Positions 1,759 to 13,292 of a stretch of 13,292 bases of DNA are shown here, piece by piece (position 1 is the stretch's first letter; each line of letters begins with the position of its first letter). The stretch is from a virus: UHGV virus genome UHGV-0196552, one strand, 5' to 3'. A model generated the notes under the pieces. The model did not search any database, was not told where the DNA came from, and saw only the letters and a program-made list of their open reading frames with translations. The translations under genes were made by a program, and so were the position numbers.

Positions 1759-2472
1759 TCATACTTCGAATAACTCTCGGAATTTGTAATTGTGAATTTT
1801 CCCATGAATAGATATTCCGTTCTGATACGAAGATAAGGCCTCAGCATAATATTCATTGAAATGATTCCCAAAAAGCACAAAAAATCTCTTGTCATCAATA
1901 AATTCTGATAAGGCGTTTCGCAAATTGAATGTGGCATTAGATAGCGACATAATAGTGTTTTGATGAGCATCCAATAACTGCATTAGTTCATTTTCTTTTA
2001 AAATCTTAACATCCCATCGTTTTAATGAATGAAATCTCAACTTAACATCTTCTAGCTTTAATTTGTTATTTTCTATTGAGATCCTTAACTCATCAAGTGA
2101 TATTATCACTTTTGCTTTATCAGCTTGGTTTTCGAAAAAGTTAGAGCGATAGTAAATGTCAGCCTCCGCTAATACATTGATAAATGAGTCATGTACTGGA
2201 GAAACTGAATCCATCTCATTGAGTAATGATTCAGCCTTTTCTAATCCGAGTGTTCGCGTTTTTTCTGATAGCCAATCTTTAGCATTAATTGCTGCATATA
2301 ATGCAGCACCTGCCATTACTATATTACACAAAACAGAAATCCAATCACTTACGCTTCCCCATTCAAAGCCATTAGAATCAGAAAATAGTACTTTAATTAA
2401 AGCTAATATCGCTACCCATAGAAGTACTATGACGGTAGCAACTAATAATTTGTTCCATCCTTCAACTTTCAC
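1759..2472 (-). CDS. two-TM membrane protein with helical cytoplasmic domain; candidate superinfection-exclusion or abortive-infection effector
   Basis: 237-aa ORF. The start codon at 2470-2472 is GTG on the minus strand (the track shows it as M). Two hydrophobic segments near the N-terminus (LLVATVIVLLWVAILALIKVLF and ISVLCNIVMAGAALYAAI) followed by about 170 aa that look helical. Very AT-rich. Confidence 0.55.
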   Translation of the reverse strand: MKVEGWNKLLVATVIVLLWVAILALIKVLFSDSNGFEWGSVSDWISVLCNIVMAGAALYAAINAKDWLSEKTRTLGLEKAESLLNEMDSVSPVHDSFINVLAEADIYYRSNFFENQADKAKVIISLDELRISIENNKLKLEDVKLRFHSLKRWDVKILKENELMQLLDAHQNTIMSLSNATFNLRNALSEFIDDKRFFVLFGNHFNEYYAEALSSYQNGISIHGKIHNYKFRELFEV

Positions 2473-2704
2473 TTTCTTAACCCGTAGAATGGTTCATGGA
2501 TGAAAAATTTTACCATTTGCAGTTATGTTTCGTAAATGATCATCGTAGAGTGAAAATTTAACTTAAGTGGATGTTGAGACGTCATTAGATGGCGTTGTAC
2601 TGGTTGAGATCACGATTTCTATGAAAAAAACGGGGCTGGTTGCTTTGAACTGGTTAACATAGTGGGATTATAAGCACCGAAGAAGTACTTCAGCAGGAGT
2701 AGAT

Positions 2705-3433
2705 ATGAACAGAAAGCAATTCATCCAGTCACACGGAGCTACTTGCAGTAACTGGACGTGGAGTTGGTCATTTGTTAACCATGAAAAGAAGATGGTCATC
2801 TTTGGGTCATGGGATGTTGAGAGTGAACAAGAGCGGTCTGTAATACTCCGGGAGAAATGGGAATACAACTCAAACAACAAAAAACAACCGGGATACACCC
2901 AGGCACTGGAACACATCCGTTTAGCCCATGAAGGCTACGAACTTTACACCTTCAATATGGTTTTCGCAGAACACCCTGAGAATCCTGAAATTGCAGTAAT
3001 CAAGGATTTTGAGCGTAAATTAAACAAGCGATATCTTCGTAAAGAAGGTGTTGTTTGGTATGCAGACTTCTTACCTAATCCATTCCCTGATGAAATTCCT
3101 TCAGGAGAGAGTTTTGTTGAAGGTGCAAAGACTCAAGTAACAGTGAACTACTACGAACGCGATCCAAAGGCCAGACAAGCCTGCATCCAGCATCACGGTA
3201 CTGCCTGTAAATGCTGTGGCTTCGATTTTGAGAAGGTCTATGGTACACATGGCCGTGGGTTCATTCATGTACATCACATCAAGCCGCTTCATACGATTGG
3301 GGAAAACTATGTGGTCAATCCCGTAACAGATATGATCCCATTATGTCCAAACTGCCATGCAATGGTACATCACGGAAGCGAAGTACTTCCAATTGCAGAT
3401 TTGAAAAAGAAAATGACATTCTGGAGCGAGTAA
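2705..3433 (+). CDS. McrA-like HNH nuclease: about 170-aa N-terminal domain of unknown function plus C-terminal HNH (beta-beta-alpha-Me) motif
   Basis: Strong RBS AGGAG 5 nt before ATG 2705. C-terminus contains CKCCGF...GFIHVHHIKPL...LCPNCHAMVHH, the classic Cys-pair, HH, Cys-x2-Cys-His HNH signature as in McrA-type enzymes. N-terminal domain is Trp-rich (WTWSWSF, GSWD). Confidence 0.75.
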   Translation: MNRKQFIQSHGATCSNWTWSWSFVNHEKKMVIFGSWDVESEQERSVILREKWEYNSNNKKQPGYTQALEHIRLAHEGYELYTFNMVFAEHPENPEIAVIKDFERKLNKRYLRKEGVVWYADFLPNPFPDEIPSGESFVEGAKTQVTVNYYERDPKARQACIQHHGTACKCCGFDFEKVYGTHGRGFIHVHHIKPLHTIGENYVVNPVTDMIPLCPNCHAMVHHGSEVLPIADLKKKMTFWSE

Positions 3434-4225
3434 ATGGATTTATCACAATTGAGCAACGTCGAATTGATGCAACTGAATCAGTTGACGCTTGATGAGTTAG
3501 AACGACGAGAGGTTATCAGAACCAGAAACAATCCTATCAGTGAGTACACTGAATGGCTGGTTGCGGATAAGATGCAAATGGTACTGGCTGCACCTAGTAC
3601 TAAAGGGTATGACGCTACAACAACTGACGATCGAAAAATTCAGATTAAGTCTCGTAAGAATAATTTAAAAAACCAATCATTAATTCTTGGGATTATCAGA
3701 AATTATGATCTGAACCAATTCGATGAACTCATTGCCGTAATATATAACCATGATTTCTCAATTCGTTATGCCATATCCATACCACATGAATTAGTGAAGG
3801 AATATGGTTTTTATAATGAGCATCAAAATGGTTACACTTTAAGAATAAGCAATTTATTACTTAACGATCCACGTGTAACAGATATCATTGAATTTATTGA
3901 CCCAGACACTGAACGTTCAAAGGAAGAGATCACGGTGAAGCCAGATTCAAACACTATCCGGGATGTACAGACAATAGGAATGCAGACATTTGTTGAGTAC
4001 TATCAGTATGTTGAAAGTGGTATGAACACAACTGATCTTGTTGAAAAGATGGTAACTGACCATCCAGAATGGAAGGAAAGTACTGCAAGAACTAAGGCAT
4101 CTTCAATGCGAAGAGTATTCAAGAATGGCGACAACATTGAAGTACTAAAAATCATCTATAAGTCGAATCACCCAGCAATAACGCATGAGATTAAGAGTAA
4201 ACTGATGACGCGTTGGGATAAATGA
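3434..4225 (+). CDS. hypothetical protein translationally coupled to the HNH nuclease; N-terminal region has a possible Mrr-like PD-(D/E)xK signature
   Basis: ATG 3434 directly follows the TAA of the upstream gene (3431-3433), with GGAG 8 nt upstream. SEYTEW...KGYD...DDRKIQIKS fits E...D...(Q/E)xK spacing of restriction-endonuclease-fold proteins such as Mrr. This is a weak, motif-only assignment. Confidence 0.5.
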   Translation: MDLSQLSNVELMQLNQLTLDELERREVIRTRNNPISEYTEWLVADKMQMVLAAPSTKGYDATTTDDRKIQIKSRKNNLKNQSLILGIIRNYDLNQFDELIAVIYNHDFSIRYAISIPHELVKEYGFYNEHQNGYTLRISNLLLNDPRVTDIIEFIDPDTERSKEEITVKPDSNTIRDVQTIGMQTFVEYYQYVESGMNTTDLVEKMVTDHPEWKESTARTKASSMRRVFKNGDNIEVLKIIYKSNHPAITHEIKSKLMTRWDK

Positions 4226-4271
4226 ACAAAGTTTGGGTTATATTTTTGACGCAAAAAGATATAATTGTAGT

Positions 4272-4321
4272 ACTTCCACCTTTCGCATTTGGGTAGGTTT
4301 GTTTGGGCGATTGGTGGAAGT
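4272..4321. terminator. 9-bp inverted repeat (ACTTCCACC ... GGTGGAAGT) between convergent genes; possible bidirectional terminator or regulatory structure
   Basis: Arms at 4272-4280 and 4313-4321 are perfect reverse complements. The loop is about 32 nt, which is long for a classical intrinsic terminator. Confidence 0.25.
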
Positions 4322-4325
4322 GCTA

Positions 4326-4637
4326 TCAAAACGGTAATTCTCCCTGCTCATAGAACCATCCATCTTCATCATGCTGCTTATAGACGGCATTCTCAGTACT
4401 CAGATATTGCAAACCTTCCAGTACTGAACTTAGCGGCGTTTCCAGTATGAACACGAAGCAATCACGCTCAATCGTGCCTAACCAGTATGTACCTTGCTGG
4501 TTCTGGAAGAAAACGCGATCCCCATATGAAAACTCATCAAGACTGTATCCCCAATAGCAGACCTTAGCCCATTGGCCTAAATGCTCAAACTGCTGCACCC
4601 CGCGTTTGATTGCCAGATCAAAACCGTTCTTGCCCAT
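4326..4637 (-). CDS. hypothetical small protein (103 aa), Trp/Tyr-rich
   Basis: ATG start with GAGG-type RBS about 9 nt upstream on the minus strand. GC higher than neighbouring AT-rich genes. No family recognised. Confidence 0.5.
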   Translation of the reverse strand: MGKNGFDLAIKRGVQQFEHLGQWAKVCYWGYSLDEFSYGDRVFFQNQQGTYWLGTIERDCFVFILETPLSSVLEGLQYLSTENAVYKQHDEDGWFYEQGELPF

Positions 4638-4743
4638 ACTATGCCTCTACATTAATACTGGTTATCCATACAGTATTGCATCACATTTCGCACAGATCCA
4701 GCCATCAAAATACTTACCACTAAAAACGGTAGAAATGTAATTA

Positions 4744-4813
4744 TCGATCATTTTAATTTGATCAATGGTTAAAAATGATCAATTATCAATCAGTTATGAC
4801 AACTGAGAGATCA
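4744..4813. promoter_or_regulatory. divergent promoter region with clustered GATC sites and TTGATCAA-type palindromes; operator-like
   Basis: Four GATC within about 70 bp (about 4745, 4760, 4777, 4809). Palindrome TTGATCAA at 4758-4765 and related ATGATCAAT at 4775-4783, spaced about 17 bp centre to centre. A DnaA-box-like TTATCCATA lies at 4662-4670. Confidence 0.3.
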
Positions 4814-4815
4814 AC

Positions 4816-5325
4816 ATGAAACTCGAACATTGGGCAATTCCGATCACTTCATTGGACGGTATGTTACTCGGCGTAGAGCTGGAAACCCGTGTACTGATAA
4901 ACGGTTGCCAGGTACTGATGGGGGCAGGAAAAGAAAGTGAATATATCCGTCACGTGGTCTATCAGAACCAGTTAAGAATGATTCAGGGTAAAGCCGCATG
5001 GTTCAAAGAAAAGGGGCTGTTGTGCGTGCTCAGTACTGGCACAGGTACACGCTATGAAGATCTACCATTCATACGGTACATGGCTGCTGAACCACTGCTA
5101 ACGGACGGTTACGACTTAGTTCGACTAAATAGACGGTTCACTGAAGAACACATAGAGCGGCTGATCTTCCCGGTACTCATCAATAACATCATGCAGTACT
5201 GCGACAAGGTGATCGTACAAGTCAGCAGCAATCGAAATCACAGGATTTTACGAGAGTCGGGGGTATGGGCAGTACAGGGAGAGTACAGGCCAATCCGCTT
5301 TGAACAATGCGAACAACTTCTATAG
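4816..5325 (+). CDS. compact, degenerate EAL-like domain protein (probably catalytically inactive c-di-GMP phosphodiesterase homologue)
   Basis: Four EAL-like motifs in the right order: PITSLDGMLLGVELETR (compare YQPIVDL.TG.IVGAEALLRW), LSTGTGTRY (compare DDFGTGYSS, with DD lost), DLVRLNRRF (compare LKIDRSF), VQVSSN...VQGEYRP (compare EGVE...QGY.FSRP, with EGVE lost). Only 169 aa, shorter than a canonical EAL domain. Confidence 0.45.
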   Translation: MKLEHWAIPITSLDGMLLGVELETRVLINGCQVLMGAGKESEYIRHVVYQNQLRMIQGKAAWFKEKGLLCVLSTGTGTRYEDLPFIRYMAAEPLLTDGYDLVRLNRRFTEEHIERLIFPVLINNIMQYCDKVIVQVSSNRNHRILRESGVWAVQGEYRPIRFEQCEQLL

Positions 5326-5335
5326 GGATATAACA

Positions 5336-5608
5336 ATGAAAATACTAATCGTCATGTTGGTAGTACTGCTCACAGGCTGCGGCAGCGTACATCACTCATT
5401 CATGGATAAAGCCTTTGTCGGCAACGTTGATAACAAGGCTACAATAGTACTGTTCGACGCTGGCACACGAAACGGGGTGAAGTACTACCGGCCTCAGTTC
5501 CAGAGTGATTGTGGCCGCACCTACAATCCGATTTACCAGGTGGACAATGGCAGTACTACATGCCATATACGAGAGGAAAGAATTAAAAAAATGCATCAAT
5601 ATAGATAA
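5336..5608 (+). CDS. small lipoprotein (signal peptide with lipobox LTGC); candidate moron or superinfection-exclusion lipoprotein
   Basis: The track ORF 5300-5608 begins with a TTG shown as M. The internal ATG at 5336 has an AGGGA RBS about 7 nt upstream and begins MKILIVMLVVLLTGC, a textbook lipoprotein signal. Mature part has several Cys. Confidence 0.6.
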   Translation: MKILIVMLVVLLTGCGSVHHSFMDKAFVGNVDNKATIVLFDAGTRNGVKYYRPQFQSDCGRTYNPIYQVDNGSTTCHIREERIKKMHQYR

Positions 5609-5688
5609 TAAACAAAAATCAAAGAGATAGAATTATTAAATTATTAAGTGTATGTGGCATGATGAAAAATTAAATAATATATAATACC

Positions 5689-5718
5689 CTCATGCTGTTA
5701 TTGATAAAACAGCATGAG
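5689..5718. terminator. 11-bp perfect inverted repeat hairpin between convergent genes; probable bidirectional terminator
   Basis: CTCATGCTGTT (5689-5699) and AACAGCATGAG (5708-5718) are exact reverse complements with an 8-nt loop. Lies between the lipoprotein gene (ends 5608, +) and the DUF3800 gene (ends 5729, -). Flanks are AT-rich but there is no clean T-run. Confidence 0.4.
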
Positions 5719-5728
5719 AATATATATC

Positions 5729-6883
5729 TCAACGTAGCATGGCTAATGTTCTGGAAATTCTTATTATATCCTTCTCAATATCATCTAAAACAGGAGTTGA
5801 GTTTCTGCTTCGCTCTGCAATTTCTTGCAAAATATATCTATTTAAATGGTTGTTAACATTTTTAGGGTCAAGGTTTTCTGGTGTGGGAACAACACAGCAC
5901 TGCCAATAAAAAATCTCATCTTCAAAATGATTTAGCCATTTAGAATGATATTTTTCTTTCGATTTTTTCTTGTTAAGTACATAAATGCTAGCCGCAGCTA
6001 CCACATCCGCAATTTGTATACCATGCGTGACTTTAGAATCAGAAAGAATCATTGGCTCAGATAGCTTAAATGTGATCGGGATTTTTTTATCATGAAAAGT
6101 CTCGAACACAATCTCATCATTGCCTATCATCTCATTGAATGAGTCCTGATGAGTAATTAATGGTTTTGAGCTGTCGCATATAGCTCTCAATGTACCAAAC
6201 TTACTACTCATATCGCACAGGAGATTATAAAGAGAAGTCGTTGTCAAATCTAATAACCACTTATCAATCCCAGTACCCTCAAGGCCTTCATATTCTTCTT
6301 CAATTATAGAGATGTTATTCTTGGCGAAATCATGAATGTCCATCATAATTTCAGAATTTTTAGAACCAACAACTGGTTCGATAAAACTATTAACCAATAT
6401 TTTACCTCGTGAAAAATCTTCAAATCGCGAATGTAATAGTTCTGAATATTCATCCTTAGCTATTAAAGAAAAATACATTATATTTGAGATGAATAGGTGA
6501 AATTTAAGGTTGTAAAAAATTGAGCTTTTAGCTGCTAATACTGGCTCAAAAATATATTCGAAGAATTTTCCTGAGAGGGCATATTTTTTTTCGTTTACAA
6601 CCACACGCATACGACCACGGAAATGATTAAGTATTTCATCTACGGCTGGTTGAAATCTCTTGCTATTTACGAGAGTGCTACCTTTTAGCTCTTCGGCTGC
6701 GATCGAGTACTTGTTTATTATATAATCAACAAACTGTTTACTTTCCTCATCATCAGTCACGACTGCTGCGTAACTAAAAAAAGGCTGATCTTTTGAAAGT
6801 AAGTTATTACCAGTGAATCCTGATTCATCGAAATATACATTCTTTACCAATTTGGTCATTCCTTTATGAGCTACAATGTGCAT
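5729..6883 (-). CDS. DUF3800-family protein
   Basis: N-terminal VYFDESGFTG and C-terminal HGIQIADVVAAA match the DES and Q-x-x-D motifs I recall for DUF3800. 384 aa, very AT-rich. The start could be the ATG at 6883 or an internal ATG 8 codons downstream; neither has a clean RBS. Confidence 0.65.
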   Translation of the reverse strand: MHIVAHKGMTKLVKNVYFDESGFTGNNLLSKDQPFFSYAAVVTDDEESKQFVDYIINKYSIAAEELKGSTLVNSKRFQPAVDEILNHFRGRMRVVVNEKKYALSGKFFEYIFEPVLAAKSSIFYNLKFHLFISNIMYFSLIAKDEYSELLHSRFEDFSRGKILVNSFIEPVVGSKNSEIMMDIHDFAKNNISIIEEEYEGLEGTGIDKWLLDLTTTSLYNLLCDMSSKFGTLRAICDSSKPLITHQDSFNEMIGNDEIVFETFHDKKIPITFKLSEPMILSDSKVTHGIQIADVVAAASIYVLNKKKSKEKYHSKWLNHFEDEIFYWQCCVVPTPENLDPKNVNNHLNRYILQEIAERSRNSTPVLDDIEKDIIRISRTLAMLR

Positions 6884-6978
6884 GTGCTATTAATATAACA
6901 TTGTAATAATGCTAATGTAAAATAGAATGTAAGTATTTTTAAGCAAGCTAATTAAGTTAAATTACTAATTAAGGTACT

Positions 6979-7060
6979 CCGGCAGCCCAGCTTAGAACGC
7001 GAGTTTTCGGCACCGGATTCTTTAAGTTATGTGTGAAGTTTAGATAGCTTCCCGCACCGC
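6979..7060. other. GC-rich island in an otherwise AT-rich intergenic region; possible cos-like packaging site
   Basis: CGCGAGTTTTCGG (6998-7010) followed by CCGGATTCTTTAAG resembles, from memory, lambda left-end sequence CGCGGGTTTTCGC ... CCGGTTTAAGG. Three related GC-rich repeats: CCGGCAGCCC (6979), CGGCACCGG (7008), CCGCACCGC (7052). Confidence 0.2.
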
Positions 7061-7062
7061 AC

Positions 7063-7626
7063 TTAGCAAAGTACAACACCTATTTCATTTAACGCACAAT
7101 CGCAATGACGGTTTGTCGGACATTCGCATAATTTGAATACTGCATAAGATCCTTTAAGGGTATCGGTTACATACTTGTCCATTTCTTCAACTACAGATGA
7201 TGAGCAATATAAATGAAAACCAACACAGAAAGAATTTCGCATCGGATACTTACATTCTTGTATAGAGTTGAGTTTCAAATGGTCTGCTTGCAATCCTCTT
7301 TTTAAGGCAGATGAACGCTTAGTACATTTCAGCTCAATAAAGATATAGTCTTCAAAAAGGGTATCTTTTTCTCTCATTATTATATCGATTTTTGAGAGCT
7401 TGCTTGCAGGGAAATTATTAGGGTCAAGAAAAGCTGTAACTTCACGTTTAACTTCATATTTTCTTTTTTTGTTAAGGAAGTGCTCAAATTCAATTTGTAG
7501 CCATTTTTCCCAATCATTAGTTTCATTACTGACGAAGGAATACAGACGCCTCTTTATATCTTCATTCTTTAGGAAGCTATTCAGTAACTTTACCAGCAAA
7601 GAAAAATCATTGTTGCGGTCTGACAT
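7063..7626 (-). CDS. PD-(D/E)xK-like nuclease with C-terminal Cys cluster
   Basis: WLQIEFEHF (acidic motif I), KIDIIM (Asp) and IFIELKC (E-x-K) match restriction-endonuclease-fold spacing. C-terminal CECPTNRHCDC (C-x-C-x5-C-x-C) could bind a metal or Fe-S cluster, reminiscent of Cas4/RecB-family nucleases. ATG at 7626, 38 bp from the divergent terS start. Confidence 0.55.
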   Translation of the reverse strand: MSDRNNDFSLLVKLLNSFLKNEDIKRRLYSFVSNETNDWEKWLQIEFEHFLNKKRKYEVKREVTAFLDPNNFPASKLSKIDIIMREKDTLFEDYIFIELKCTKRSSALKRGLQADHLKLNSIQECKYPMRNSFCVGFHLYCSSSVVEEMDKYVTDTLKGSYAVFKLCECPTNRHCDCALNEIGVVLC

Positions 7627-7640
7627 AGTGATCTCAATAA

Positions 7641-10008
<2,368 letters not shown>

Positions 10009-10011
10009 TAA

Positions 10012-13292
<3,281 letters not shown>

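Follow-up and report, generated by a model that had tools for sequence, protein, structure and literature searches.

The DNA analysed here, called the window below, is the whole 13,292-nucleotide (nt) stretch of the virus genome UHGV-0196552, and coordinates refer to it unless a locus is named. The window is part of a prophage, and its genes run in the order HNH-like open reading frame (ORF) ORF166, ORF174, the gene studied here, an HNH endonuclease gene with a DUF6998 gene, ORF103, EAL-like ORF169, a lipoprotein gene, DUF3800, ORF187, terS, a GpA-type terL, and portal. The closest terL of a sequenced phage is 35% identical. Our subject, the target gene, encodes a protein with two N-terminal transmembrane (TM) helices and a predicted helical bundle. 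It belongs to a prophage family in which the membrane-spanning part is conserved and the rest of the protein is exchanged between almost isogenic prophages. Related loci are labelled L001, L003 and so on. The features of the gene and its upstream region are as follows.

1759-2472, minus strand: target coding sequence, 237 amino acids (aa), GTG start, stop codon at 1759-1761; member of an uncurated prophage family with two TM helices and a four-helix bundle
2383-2448, minus strand: TM1 (residues 9-30), Kyte-Doolittle maximum 2.8, AlphaFold2 helix 3-29; a short net-positive N-tail (residues 1-8) precedes it
2341-2382, minus strand: short predicted periplasmic loop, acidic (residues 31-44), carrying the family signature F-E-W-G-S-x-[ST]-D-W; alleles recombine at its 3' edge
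2281-2340, minus strand: TM2 (residues 45-64), Ala/Gly-rich (MAGAALYAA), Kyte-Doolittle maximum 1.9, running straight into the first bundle helix
1762-2280, minus strand: predicted cytoplasmic helical domain (residues 65-237), an antiparallel four-helix bundle and the family's hypervariable part
1679-2340, no strand: allele cassette, replaced by unrelated sequence in L023/L040 (blastn)
2507-2536, minus strand: predicted promoter of the target, with a -35-like TTTACG (2531-2536), an 18-nt spacer, and an extended -10 element TGGTAAAAT (2507-2515), ~35 nt upstream of the GTG
2561-2568, no strand: palindrome ACTTAAGT within CACTTAAGTTAAA, just upstream of the -35 element, a candidate operator

The target is a genuine gene. 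Its homologues begin at the same aligned position with ATG or GTG, which makes the GTG start credible. They are full-length in 12 close and 329 distant clusters, and the ratio of nonsynonymous to synonymous substitution rates (dN/dS) is ~0.1 against alleles of the same class, indicating purifying selection (between allele classes dS is saturated). This conservation argues that the ORF is more than a product of chance. A reading made from the letters alone, here the sequence-only reading, had proposed the GTG-initiated frame on the minus strand, antisense to its neighbours. The frame holds at 237 aa with its start backed by homologues, and the flanking ORF174 and HNH genes are both on the plus strand. 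The AT-richness that it pointed out is weakly confirmed: the GC content is 33.5% vs 37.9% for the window, which is the 3.9th percentile among all 714-nt windows, and it is no lower than that of DUF3800, ORF187 or ORF166 of the same stretch. By sequence inspection the ribosome-binding site is weak. Together with the GTG start, this would fit a membrane protein of low abundance.

The hydrophobic segments of the protein lie at residues 9-30 and 44-64. AlphaFold2, run on an alignment of 13 sequences, places helices at residues 3-29, 41-110, 116-153, 160-187, and 195-227, with a mean predicted local distance difference test (pLDDT) of 81.7 and a predicted template modelling score (pTM) of 0.66. In the predicted fold, the second helix of a TM hairpin continues into an antiparallel four-helix bundle. 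Hydropathy and fold prediction thus both bear out the two N-terminal TM helices and the helical domain described before. In the target, K2 and K8 lie in the N-tail, the loop has three D/E and no K/R, and four K/R follow TM2. In 36 diverse relatives the mean net charge is +1.4 for the N-tail, -1.5 for the loop, and +0.8 after TM2, with 2.7 K+R after TM2 on average. Because of this charge distribution, the target is predicted to be an inner-membrane protein with both ends and the bundle in the cytoplasm (N-in/C-in).

Conservation within the 36 members follows the same division. The mean pairwise identity is 35% in the N-tail and TM1, 47% in the loop, and 39% in TM2, vs 14% in the bundle. The loop is acidic and 12-14 residues long. 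D43, A57, and W67 are invariant, A60 is conserved in 97% and E37/G39 in 86%. W67 sits at the membrane exit of TM2, and a conserved Asn is located within TM2.

Near-identical prophages place the exchange at a precise point. L023/L040 are 99.5% identical to the window over 2341-13093 (10.7 kb) and 97% over 1-1678, while the segment 1679-2340 is unrelated. The junction falls at codon 44/45, directly after FEWGSVSDW, and comparison with L011 and L025 puts it at the same place; for all of L011, L023, and L025, homology ends at nt 2341-2343. A third allele occupies L001/L024 in a background that is 96-98% identical, and there the replaced segment is larger (1534-2694, blastn). Three different alleles are therefore found in prophages that are 96-99.5% identical elsewhere. 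Since dN/dS is ~0.1 within a class, each allele is a constrained and functional protein, and diversity arises by cassette replacement. The specificity of the target appears to be under pressure to change.

Alleles are also stacked. A family-specific hidden Markov model (HMM) detects tandem paralogues in ~40% of loci, with up to four copies. In a recurrent order, a 187-aa gene is separated by 9 nt from a 201/227-aa gene, and a ~245-aa form with two TM helices follows after ~200-240 nt that hold the promoter. The shorter array paralogues have no TM1 and begin at the loop motif. The window has a single family copy. At the left border of its variable cassette, the stretch 1210-1678 downstream of ORF174 contains no ORF of >=60 aa; it is 82% identical to L008 (to nt 1633) and 97-98% to L001 (to nt 1533) and L023. 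Short GGGCT...AGCCC hairpins occur at ~1575-1640, and Rfam finds nothing in that stretch.

In every fetched locus with the markers in reach, the family gene is located between a large serine recombinase gene and terS-terL-portal, on the opposite strand. L013 and L017 have no recombinase or terminase markers, and L013 resembles a decayed prophage remnant. For a sample free of selection bias, 80 viral contigs were fetched via terL alone, and 33 of them have >=8 kb upstream of terL. One to three family copies are present in 25 of these 33 loci, all antisense to terL, at terL identities of 44-100%. What varies among the relatives is allele and copy number rather than presence. The gene had been called a moron in the sequence-only reading. 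Found at the same site and strand in 25 of 33 terL-selected relatives, often as tandem arrays, it is instead a lineage-typical locus and no sporadic moron. As to the usual marks of a moron, the target has its own conserved promoter, and no intrinsic terminator was detected. The family is a near-constant, hypervariable feature of one Enterobacterales prophage lineage, characterized by a serine recombinase and a GpA-type terminase, and occurs almost only there. This lineage is without a cultured representative.

The promoter was found by a sigma-70-like consensus scan, and it recurs across the family. Of 54 unique regions upstream of full-length members, 24 have TGGTAAA[AG]T at -40 to -51 and four more have other TGnTAnnnT variants (-90 to -25), giving 28/54 vs 9.7% of random positions. 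The extended -10 motif is kept where the flanking sequence diverges. The target is thus predicted to be transcribed independently, from its own strong extended -10 promoter. Its own promoter, and a strand opposite to the recombinase and the packaging and head genes, suggest expression in the lysogen; in L011/L012 the family gene is on the same strand as a CI-like repressor gene. The description of the gene as a stand-alone unit fits well, as the promoter is conserved in the family and the gene moves as a cassette between near-identical prophages. The ACTTAAGT palindrome or a CTTAA...TTAAG inverted repeat is found in the window, L001, L003, L011, L015, L022, L023, and L025, and the palindrome is a possible operator. 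There is no notable repeat near the target.

The family is uncatalogued, being absent from Pfam, PHROGs, NCBIfam, and PADLOC. The best Pfam E-value of the target is 0.039, far below the cut-offs, PHROGs v4 and NCBIfam give no match (the NCBIfam scan covered the target and five relatives), and the best PADLOC-DB v2 hit is an unrelated methyltransferase model at E=0.028. With the 36 diverse relatives, no Pfam or PHROGs family was matched by more than one member, and PADLOC returned scattered single-member matches at E 1e-4 or weaker. Foldseek of the target model against the PDB gives no match at E<=0.001, and a profile search against PDB sequences finds designed or coiled-coil bundles only. In BFVD there are two uncharacterised paralogues, both from one virome contig. 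Tblastn of the target against 50,697 phage genomes finds nothing even at E<=1, megablast of the window against phages finds nothing, and an Rfam scan of the window is likewise empty. A plasmid search with the target gave one marginal match, and 1 of 5,426 complete E. coli genomes has a family member. A profile HMM search of 1.84 billion representatives recovered 329 clusters of relatives (50% identity, E<=1e-3), most of them 200-260 aa and matched over their full length. Named members are all annotated as hypothetical proteins and all come from Enterobacterales (Scandinavium, Escherichia, Klebsiella, Buttiauxella, Enterobacter, Kosakonia, Citrobacter, and Pectobacterium). Homology to a holin or to another lysis or structural protein, which would have spoken against the proposal of a membrane effector, was looked for in the family scans of the target and its relatives, and none was found.

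The neighbourhood of the family is a cargo hotspot, with HNH and DUF6998 genes, an Mrr-like gene, PDC-S15, DUF3800, and genes related to the type VI secretion system (T6SS) in the family loci. The T6SS-related genes are DUF8209-DUF1493-Hcp in L003-L007 (L003:6482-7790), a Tlde1-domain gene convergent with the family gene in L008-L010 (L008:11049-11576), and both a Tlde1-domain gene, again convergent, and a PAAR protein gene in L013 (5635-6831 and 11334-11900). The presence of Hcp, Tlde1, and PAAR genes beside the family indicates that the same hotspot carries genes for interbacterial competition.

As the likeliest role, we tentatively propose, with a little less than even confidence, that the target protects the lysogen against other phages as an exclusion or defence factor. 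This reading draws on the target's own strong predicted promoter, its antisense strand, the signals of low translation, the combination of a conserved membrane module with a hypervariable domain, the allele exchange, the tandem amplification, and the conflict cargo nearby. By analogy, diversification with a conserved membrane part and a variable bundle is typical of conflict genes, and we class the family as a kind of prophage-encoded membrane conflict protein. According to the proposed mechanism, the conserved TM hairpin would place the target in the inner membrane, where it may oligomerise or contact a conserved membrane partner. The variable cytoplasmic bundle would set which incoming phage component is recognised. 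Genome entry could then be blocked at the cytoplasmic face of the entry site (superinfection exclusion), or the membrane could lose its integrity upon a trigger (abortive infection), and the evidence does not separate the two. One or the other of these functions is what we infer for the target. The sequence-only reading had seen the architecture of such effectors here; the two TM helices and the helical bundle are as it described, but homology to a known exclusion or defence protein is missing.

Several points weigh against the proposal. No sequence or fold similarity to known exclusion or defence proteins is found in PADLOC, Pfam, PHROGs, or NCBIfam, and the predicted fold is a generic four-helix bundle. 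The variable part is predicted to face the cytoplasm, which is unusual for classical injection blockers. Selection within a class is purifying and not positive, so that diversification would rest on allele replacement alone. There is no intrinsic terminator detected near the target. In addition, the near-constancy in the lineage could reflect a role in the phage's own life cycle.

Known systems offer partial likenesses. Prophages encode superinfection-exclusion (Sie) proteins of the inner membrane, such as P22 SieA, T4 Imm, HK97 gp15, and lambda/P22 SieB. Like them, the target is a small phage-encoded protein predicted to be in the inner membrane, transcribed apart from the lytic genes and encoded in an accessory region near the integration module. 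In contrast to them, it has a much larger folded cytoplasmic domain, and its family forms tandem arrays and swaps the C-terminal two-thirds. Sequence similarity to them is not detectable, and no Pfam family, the SieB family PF14163 included, reached its curated threshold for the target. Abortive-infection (Abi) membrane effectors, including lambda RexB, the TM effectors of CBASS and Pycsar, and retron effectors with two TM helices, share N-terminal TM helices that could oligomerise (TM2 of the target is Ala/Gly-rich) and a conserved membrane module joined to a variable part. They differ in that the target is a single polypeptide without a PADLOC match, and the window has no sensor or signal-generating gene.

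SNIPE, a membrane-bound GIY-YIG nuclease, cleaves phage DNA as it is being injected (PMC13190303). It is membrane-tethered, faces the cytoplasm, has diversified recognition regions, and acts at the injection site (PMC13190303). The target is likewise predicted to be membrane-tethered and cytoplasm-facing, its homologues are diversified, and a sister allele of its family is translationally coupled to a gene for a GIY-YIG-type endonuclease. Unlike SNIPE, the target has no DUF4041 or nuclease domain and is followed by no nuclease gene, and the membrane end, which is variable in SNIPE (PMC13190303), is conserved in the target family. SNIPE may thus serve by analogy as a precedent for membrane-tethered, cytoplasm-facing defence proteins. 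The fold also matches the four-helix-bundle sensor domains of chemoreceptors (4HB_MCP of Tar/Tsr). There, TM1 and TM2 flank a periplasmic bundle, whereas the bundle of the target comes after TM2 and is predicted to face the cytoplasm. The sequences are 4-11% identical, and Pfam gives no 4HB_MCP match. The likeness is generic, since bundles designed de novo reach equal or higher scores.

A further step, which we consider unlikely at present, would describe the family as modular single-chain prophage immune proteins. The TM hairpin would act as the effector and the bundle as the sensor. Cassette exchange at the codon 44/45 joint (the stretch coding for FEWGSxSDW) would diversify the specificities, and tandem arrays would accumulate them. 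Temperate phages would in this case have a repertoire built by recombination, whose logic resembles tail-fibre or antigenic-variation cassettes, but for defence.

If the target is an exclusion or defence factor, a family new to Pfam, PHROGs, NCBIfam, and PADLOC is present in most members of a widespread Enterobacterales lineage, whose hosts are Escherichia, Klebsiella, Enterobacter, Citrobacter, Kosakonia, and others. The natural allele swaps in almost isogenic prophages would then lend themselves directly to mapping specificity onto the cytoplasmic bundle. In addition, the way in which temperate phages shuffle specificities could be read from the conserved junction inside the gene.

Alternatively, the target may serve the prophage's own life cycle, as a membrane regulator of induction or lysis timing, or as a tether for a replication or assembly step. 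We regard this as improbable, yet it is the strongest of the competing explanations. Presence in 25 of 33 terL-selected relatives at a constant position and strand is a semi-core pattern, and the conserved promoter with its candidate operator palindrome and the purifying selection would also be expected of a life-cycle gene. However, the strand is opposite to all packaging and head genes, no lysis gene is present among the 10 neighbouring ORFs scanned, and the only lysozyme-like (GH-family) gene of L001 (E. coli AREA_C483) is >14 kb away. The copy number of the family ranges from 0 to 4. Moreover, prophages with 97-99.5% identity over >10 kb have exchanged unrelated bundle alleles, and that stretch holds no partner that co-varies with them; a protein that has to fit a phage-encoded partner would hardly be expected to behave in this way. 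Should the life-cycle role hold nevertheless, the family would mark an unknown membrane step in a lineage without a cultured representative.

It is also conceivable, with a distinctly smaller probability, that family members are membrane anchors or adaptors for separate effectors in a two-component defence, the copy in the window being an orphan without its partner. In L011, L012, and L023 a sister allele overlaps by 17 nt a downstream gene for a 244-aa GIY-YIG-type endonuclease (L011:10740-11474, plus strand; phrog_1111 at 5.7e-12, Pfam GIY-YIG at 0.031), a coupling that echoes SNIPE as a membrane-bound GIY-YIG nuclease. The endonuclease gene lies inside the segment that replaces 1679-2340 of the window, and it could equally be a free-standing homing endonuclease driving cassette conversion. 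Protein P0110 (L018/L019:8001-9386) is a family member fused in frame behind 8xMP (PF24838, 'octameric membrane protein'), and in L003-L007 a separate 8xMP gene (L003:5771-6460) shares the strand of the family gene at a distance of 1.5 kb. This fusion and proximity may be a functional link or a read-through artefact. The 9-nt spacing of the 187-aa and 201/227-aa paralogues suggests hetero-complexes. On the other hand, most loci have no nuclease partner, and the one family copy of the window is followed by 550 nt without any ORF of >=60 aa.

About as doubtful is the idea that the family confers immunity against membrane-targeting toxins of competing bacteria (T6SS, bacteriocins), with the tandem paralogues as an orphan-immunity repertoire. 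T6SS-related cargo stands beside the family in three kinds of locus, and immunity islands typically contain diverged paralogues in tandem. Yet the window and its closest relatives are without such cargo, and the family gene is never co-oriented directly downstream of a toxin-like gene. The variable domain is predicted to be cytoplasmic, whereas toxins acting in the periplasm or membrane usually call for periplasmic or intramembrane specificity.

A holin or pinholin is very improbable. Class II holins are small proteins (~65-150 aa) whose cytoplasmic tail is short and charged, and their genes belong to a lysis cassette that is co-oriented with the late genes. The target shares with them two N-terminal TM helices and the predicted N-in/C-in topology. 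However, it has 237 aa with a folded cytoplasmic domain of ~170 residues, neither an endolysin nor a spanin gene stands next to it, and it runs antisense to terS, terL, and portal. Among the holin families of PHROGs and Pfam, none matches the target or the 36 relatives, and the copy number is 0-4. The holin reading was rejected on size, location, strand, copy number, and the absent family match.

Least credible of all is a decaying or spurious ORF without function, which the lack of family matches, the weak ribosome-binding site, the GTG start, and truncated family copies at some loci (L014, L015, L016) might suggest, but which was rejected on the conservation data, namely full-length homologues in >=8 enterobacterial genera, the dN/dS of ~0.1, a confident fold prediction, and the conserved promoter.

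The genes to the right of the target up to terS comprise the following.

2705-4225, plus strand: HNH endonuclease and DUF6998 pair
4326-4637, minus strand: ORF103 (phrog_2100, 2.6e-10, unknown function), on the same strand as the target
4816-5325, plus strand: ORF169
5336-5608, plus strand: 90-aa predicted lipoprotein with the lipobox MKILIVMLVVLLTGC
5729-6883, minus strand: DUF3800
7063-7626, minus strand: ORF187

The N-terminal 154 aa of the DUF6998 protein match the PADLOC model mREase_II, a methyl-directed restriction endonuclease model, at 1e-62. Nine complete E. coli genomes carry the HNH-DUF6998 pair in non-phage islands, at a nucleotide identity of 84%, and in the one island examined, that of E. 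coli SBF45, it lies beside a type III restriction subunit and an integrase. Judged by these matches, the pair is probably a mobile restriction-like defence cassette. The target had been described as sharing a divergent promoter region with the HNH operon. The 232-nt intergenic region (2473-2704) exists, but the pairing is not conserved. From nt 2695 on, L001 matches the HNH operon of the window at 96% identity, but it has other sequence in place of the target and the entire intergenic region. The pair is found in E. coli islands without the target family, and the family in turn is found next to DUF8209-DUF1493-Hcp, next to unrelated ORFs, or in arrays headed by a PDC-S15 gene. A functional partnership of the target with the HNH operon was rejected on these grounds. 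ORF103 homologues lie directly upstream of the family gene or array in L008, L014, L016, L028, and L034, so the HNH cassette that separates them in the window looks inserted.

Other cargo was noted at related loci. A 289-aa gene with a weak Mrr_cat match (E=0.0016) at L001:16891-17760 (plus strand) is convergent with the third two-TM allele in the swapped cassette; this prophage copy is riddled with IS3/IS5 elements and a group II intron. At L020:4908-5825 (plus strand), an FRG-domain gene matching the PADLOC candidate PDC-S15 at 8e-106 heads a same-strand cluster that ends in four tandem family paralogues. A search of the literature on 8xMP, PF24838, DUF8209, and DUF6998 yielded nothing useful.

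The hexamer AGTACT is the commonest of the window, with 49 copies vs ~4.4 expected from base composition (11-fold), and no other palindromic hexamer in the window exceeds 2.5-fold. It is enriched 3-10-fold in all eight related loci checked (L003, L008, L014, L020, L027, L040, L100, and L113), also where terL identity is down to 40-50%. It may be a binding or modification motif of the phage lineage. The target was said to largely lack this signature, a claim that does not hold, since two sites are observed vs 2.6 expected at the window rate. Both lie in the conserved 5' 90 nt, and their absence from the swapped 3' part is not significant. Across all four minus-strand genes there are 5 sites vs 10.1 expected (P=0.06). 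DUF3800 and ORF187, which are AT-rich (34%) and antisense, contain one site vs ~6.4 expected. By this measure these two genes, rather than the target, look compositionally foreign.

The match of ORF169 to a cyclic-di-GMP phosphodiesterase model (NCBIfam PRK11596, 7e-6) is confined to the C-terminal ~60 residues of the model. At the same position, L008/L009 carry a 224-aa gene that matches Pfam EAL in full, and ORF169 resembles a truncated gene of this EAL-domain type. The neighbouring 90-aa lipoprotein has no family match. It is 48-100% identical to its counterparts in related prophages, and it could be a surface-exclusion lipoprotein or spanin-like.

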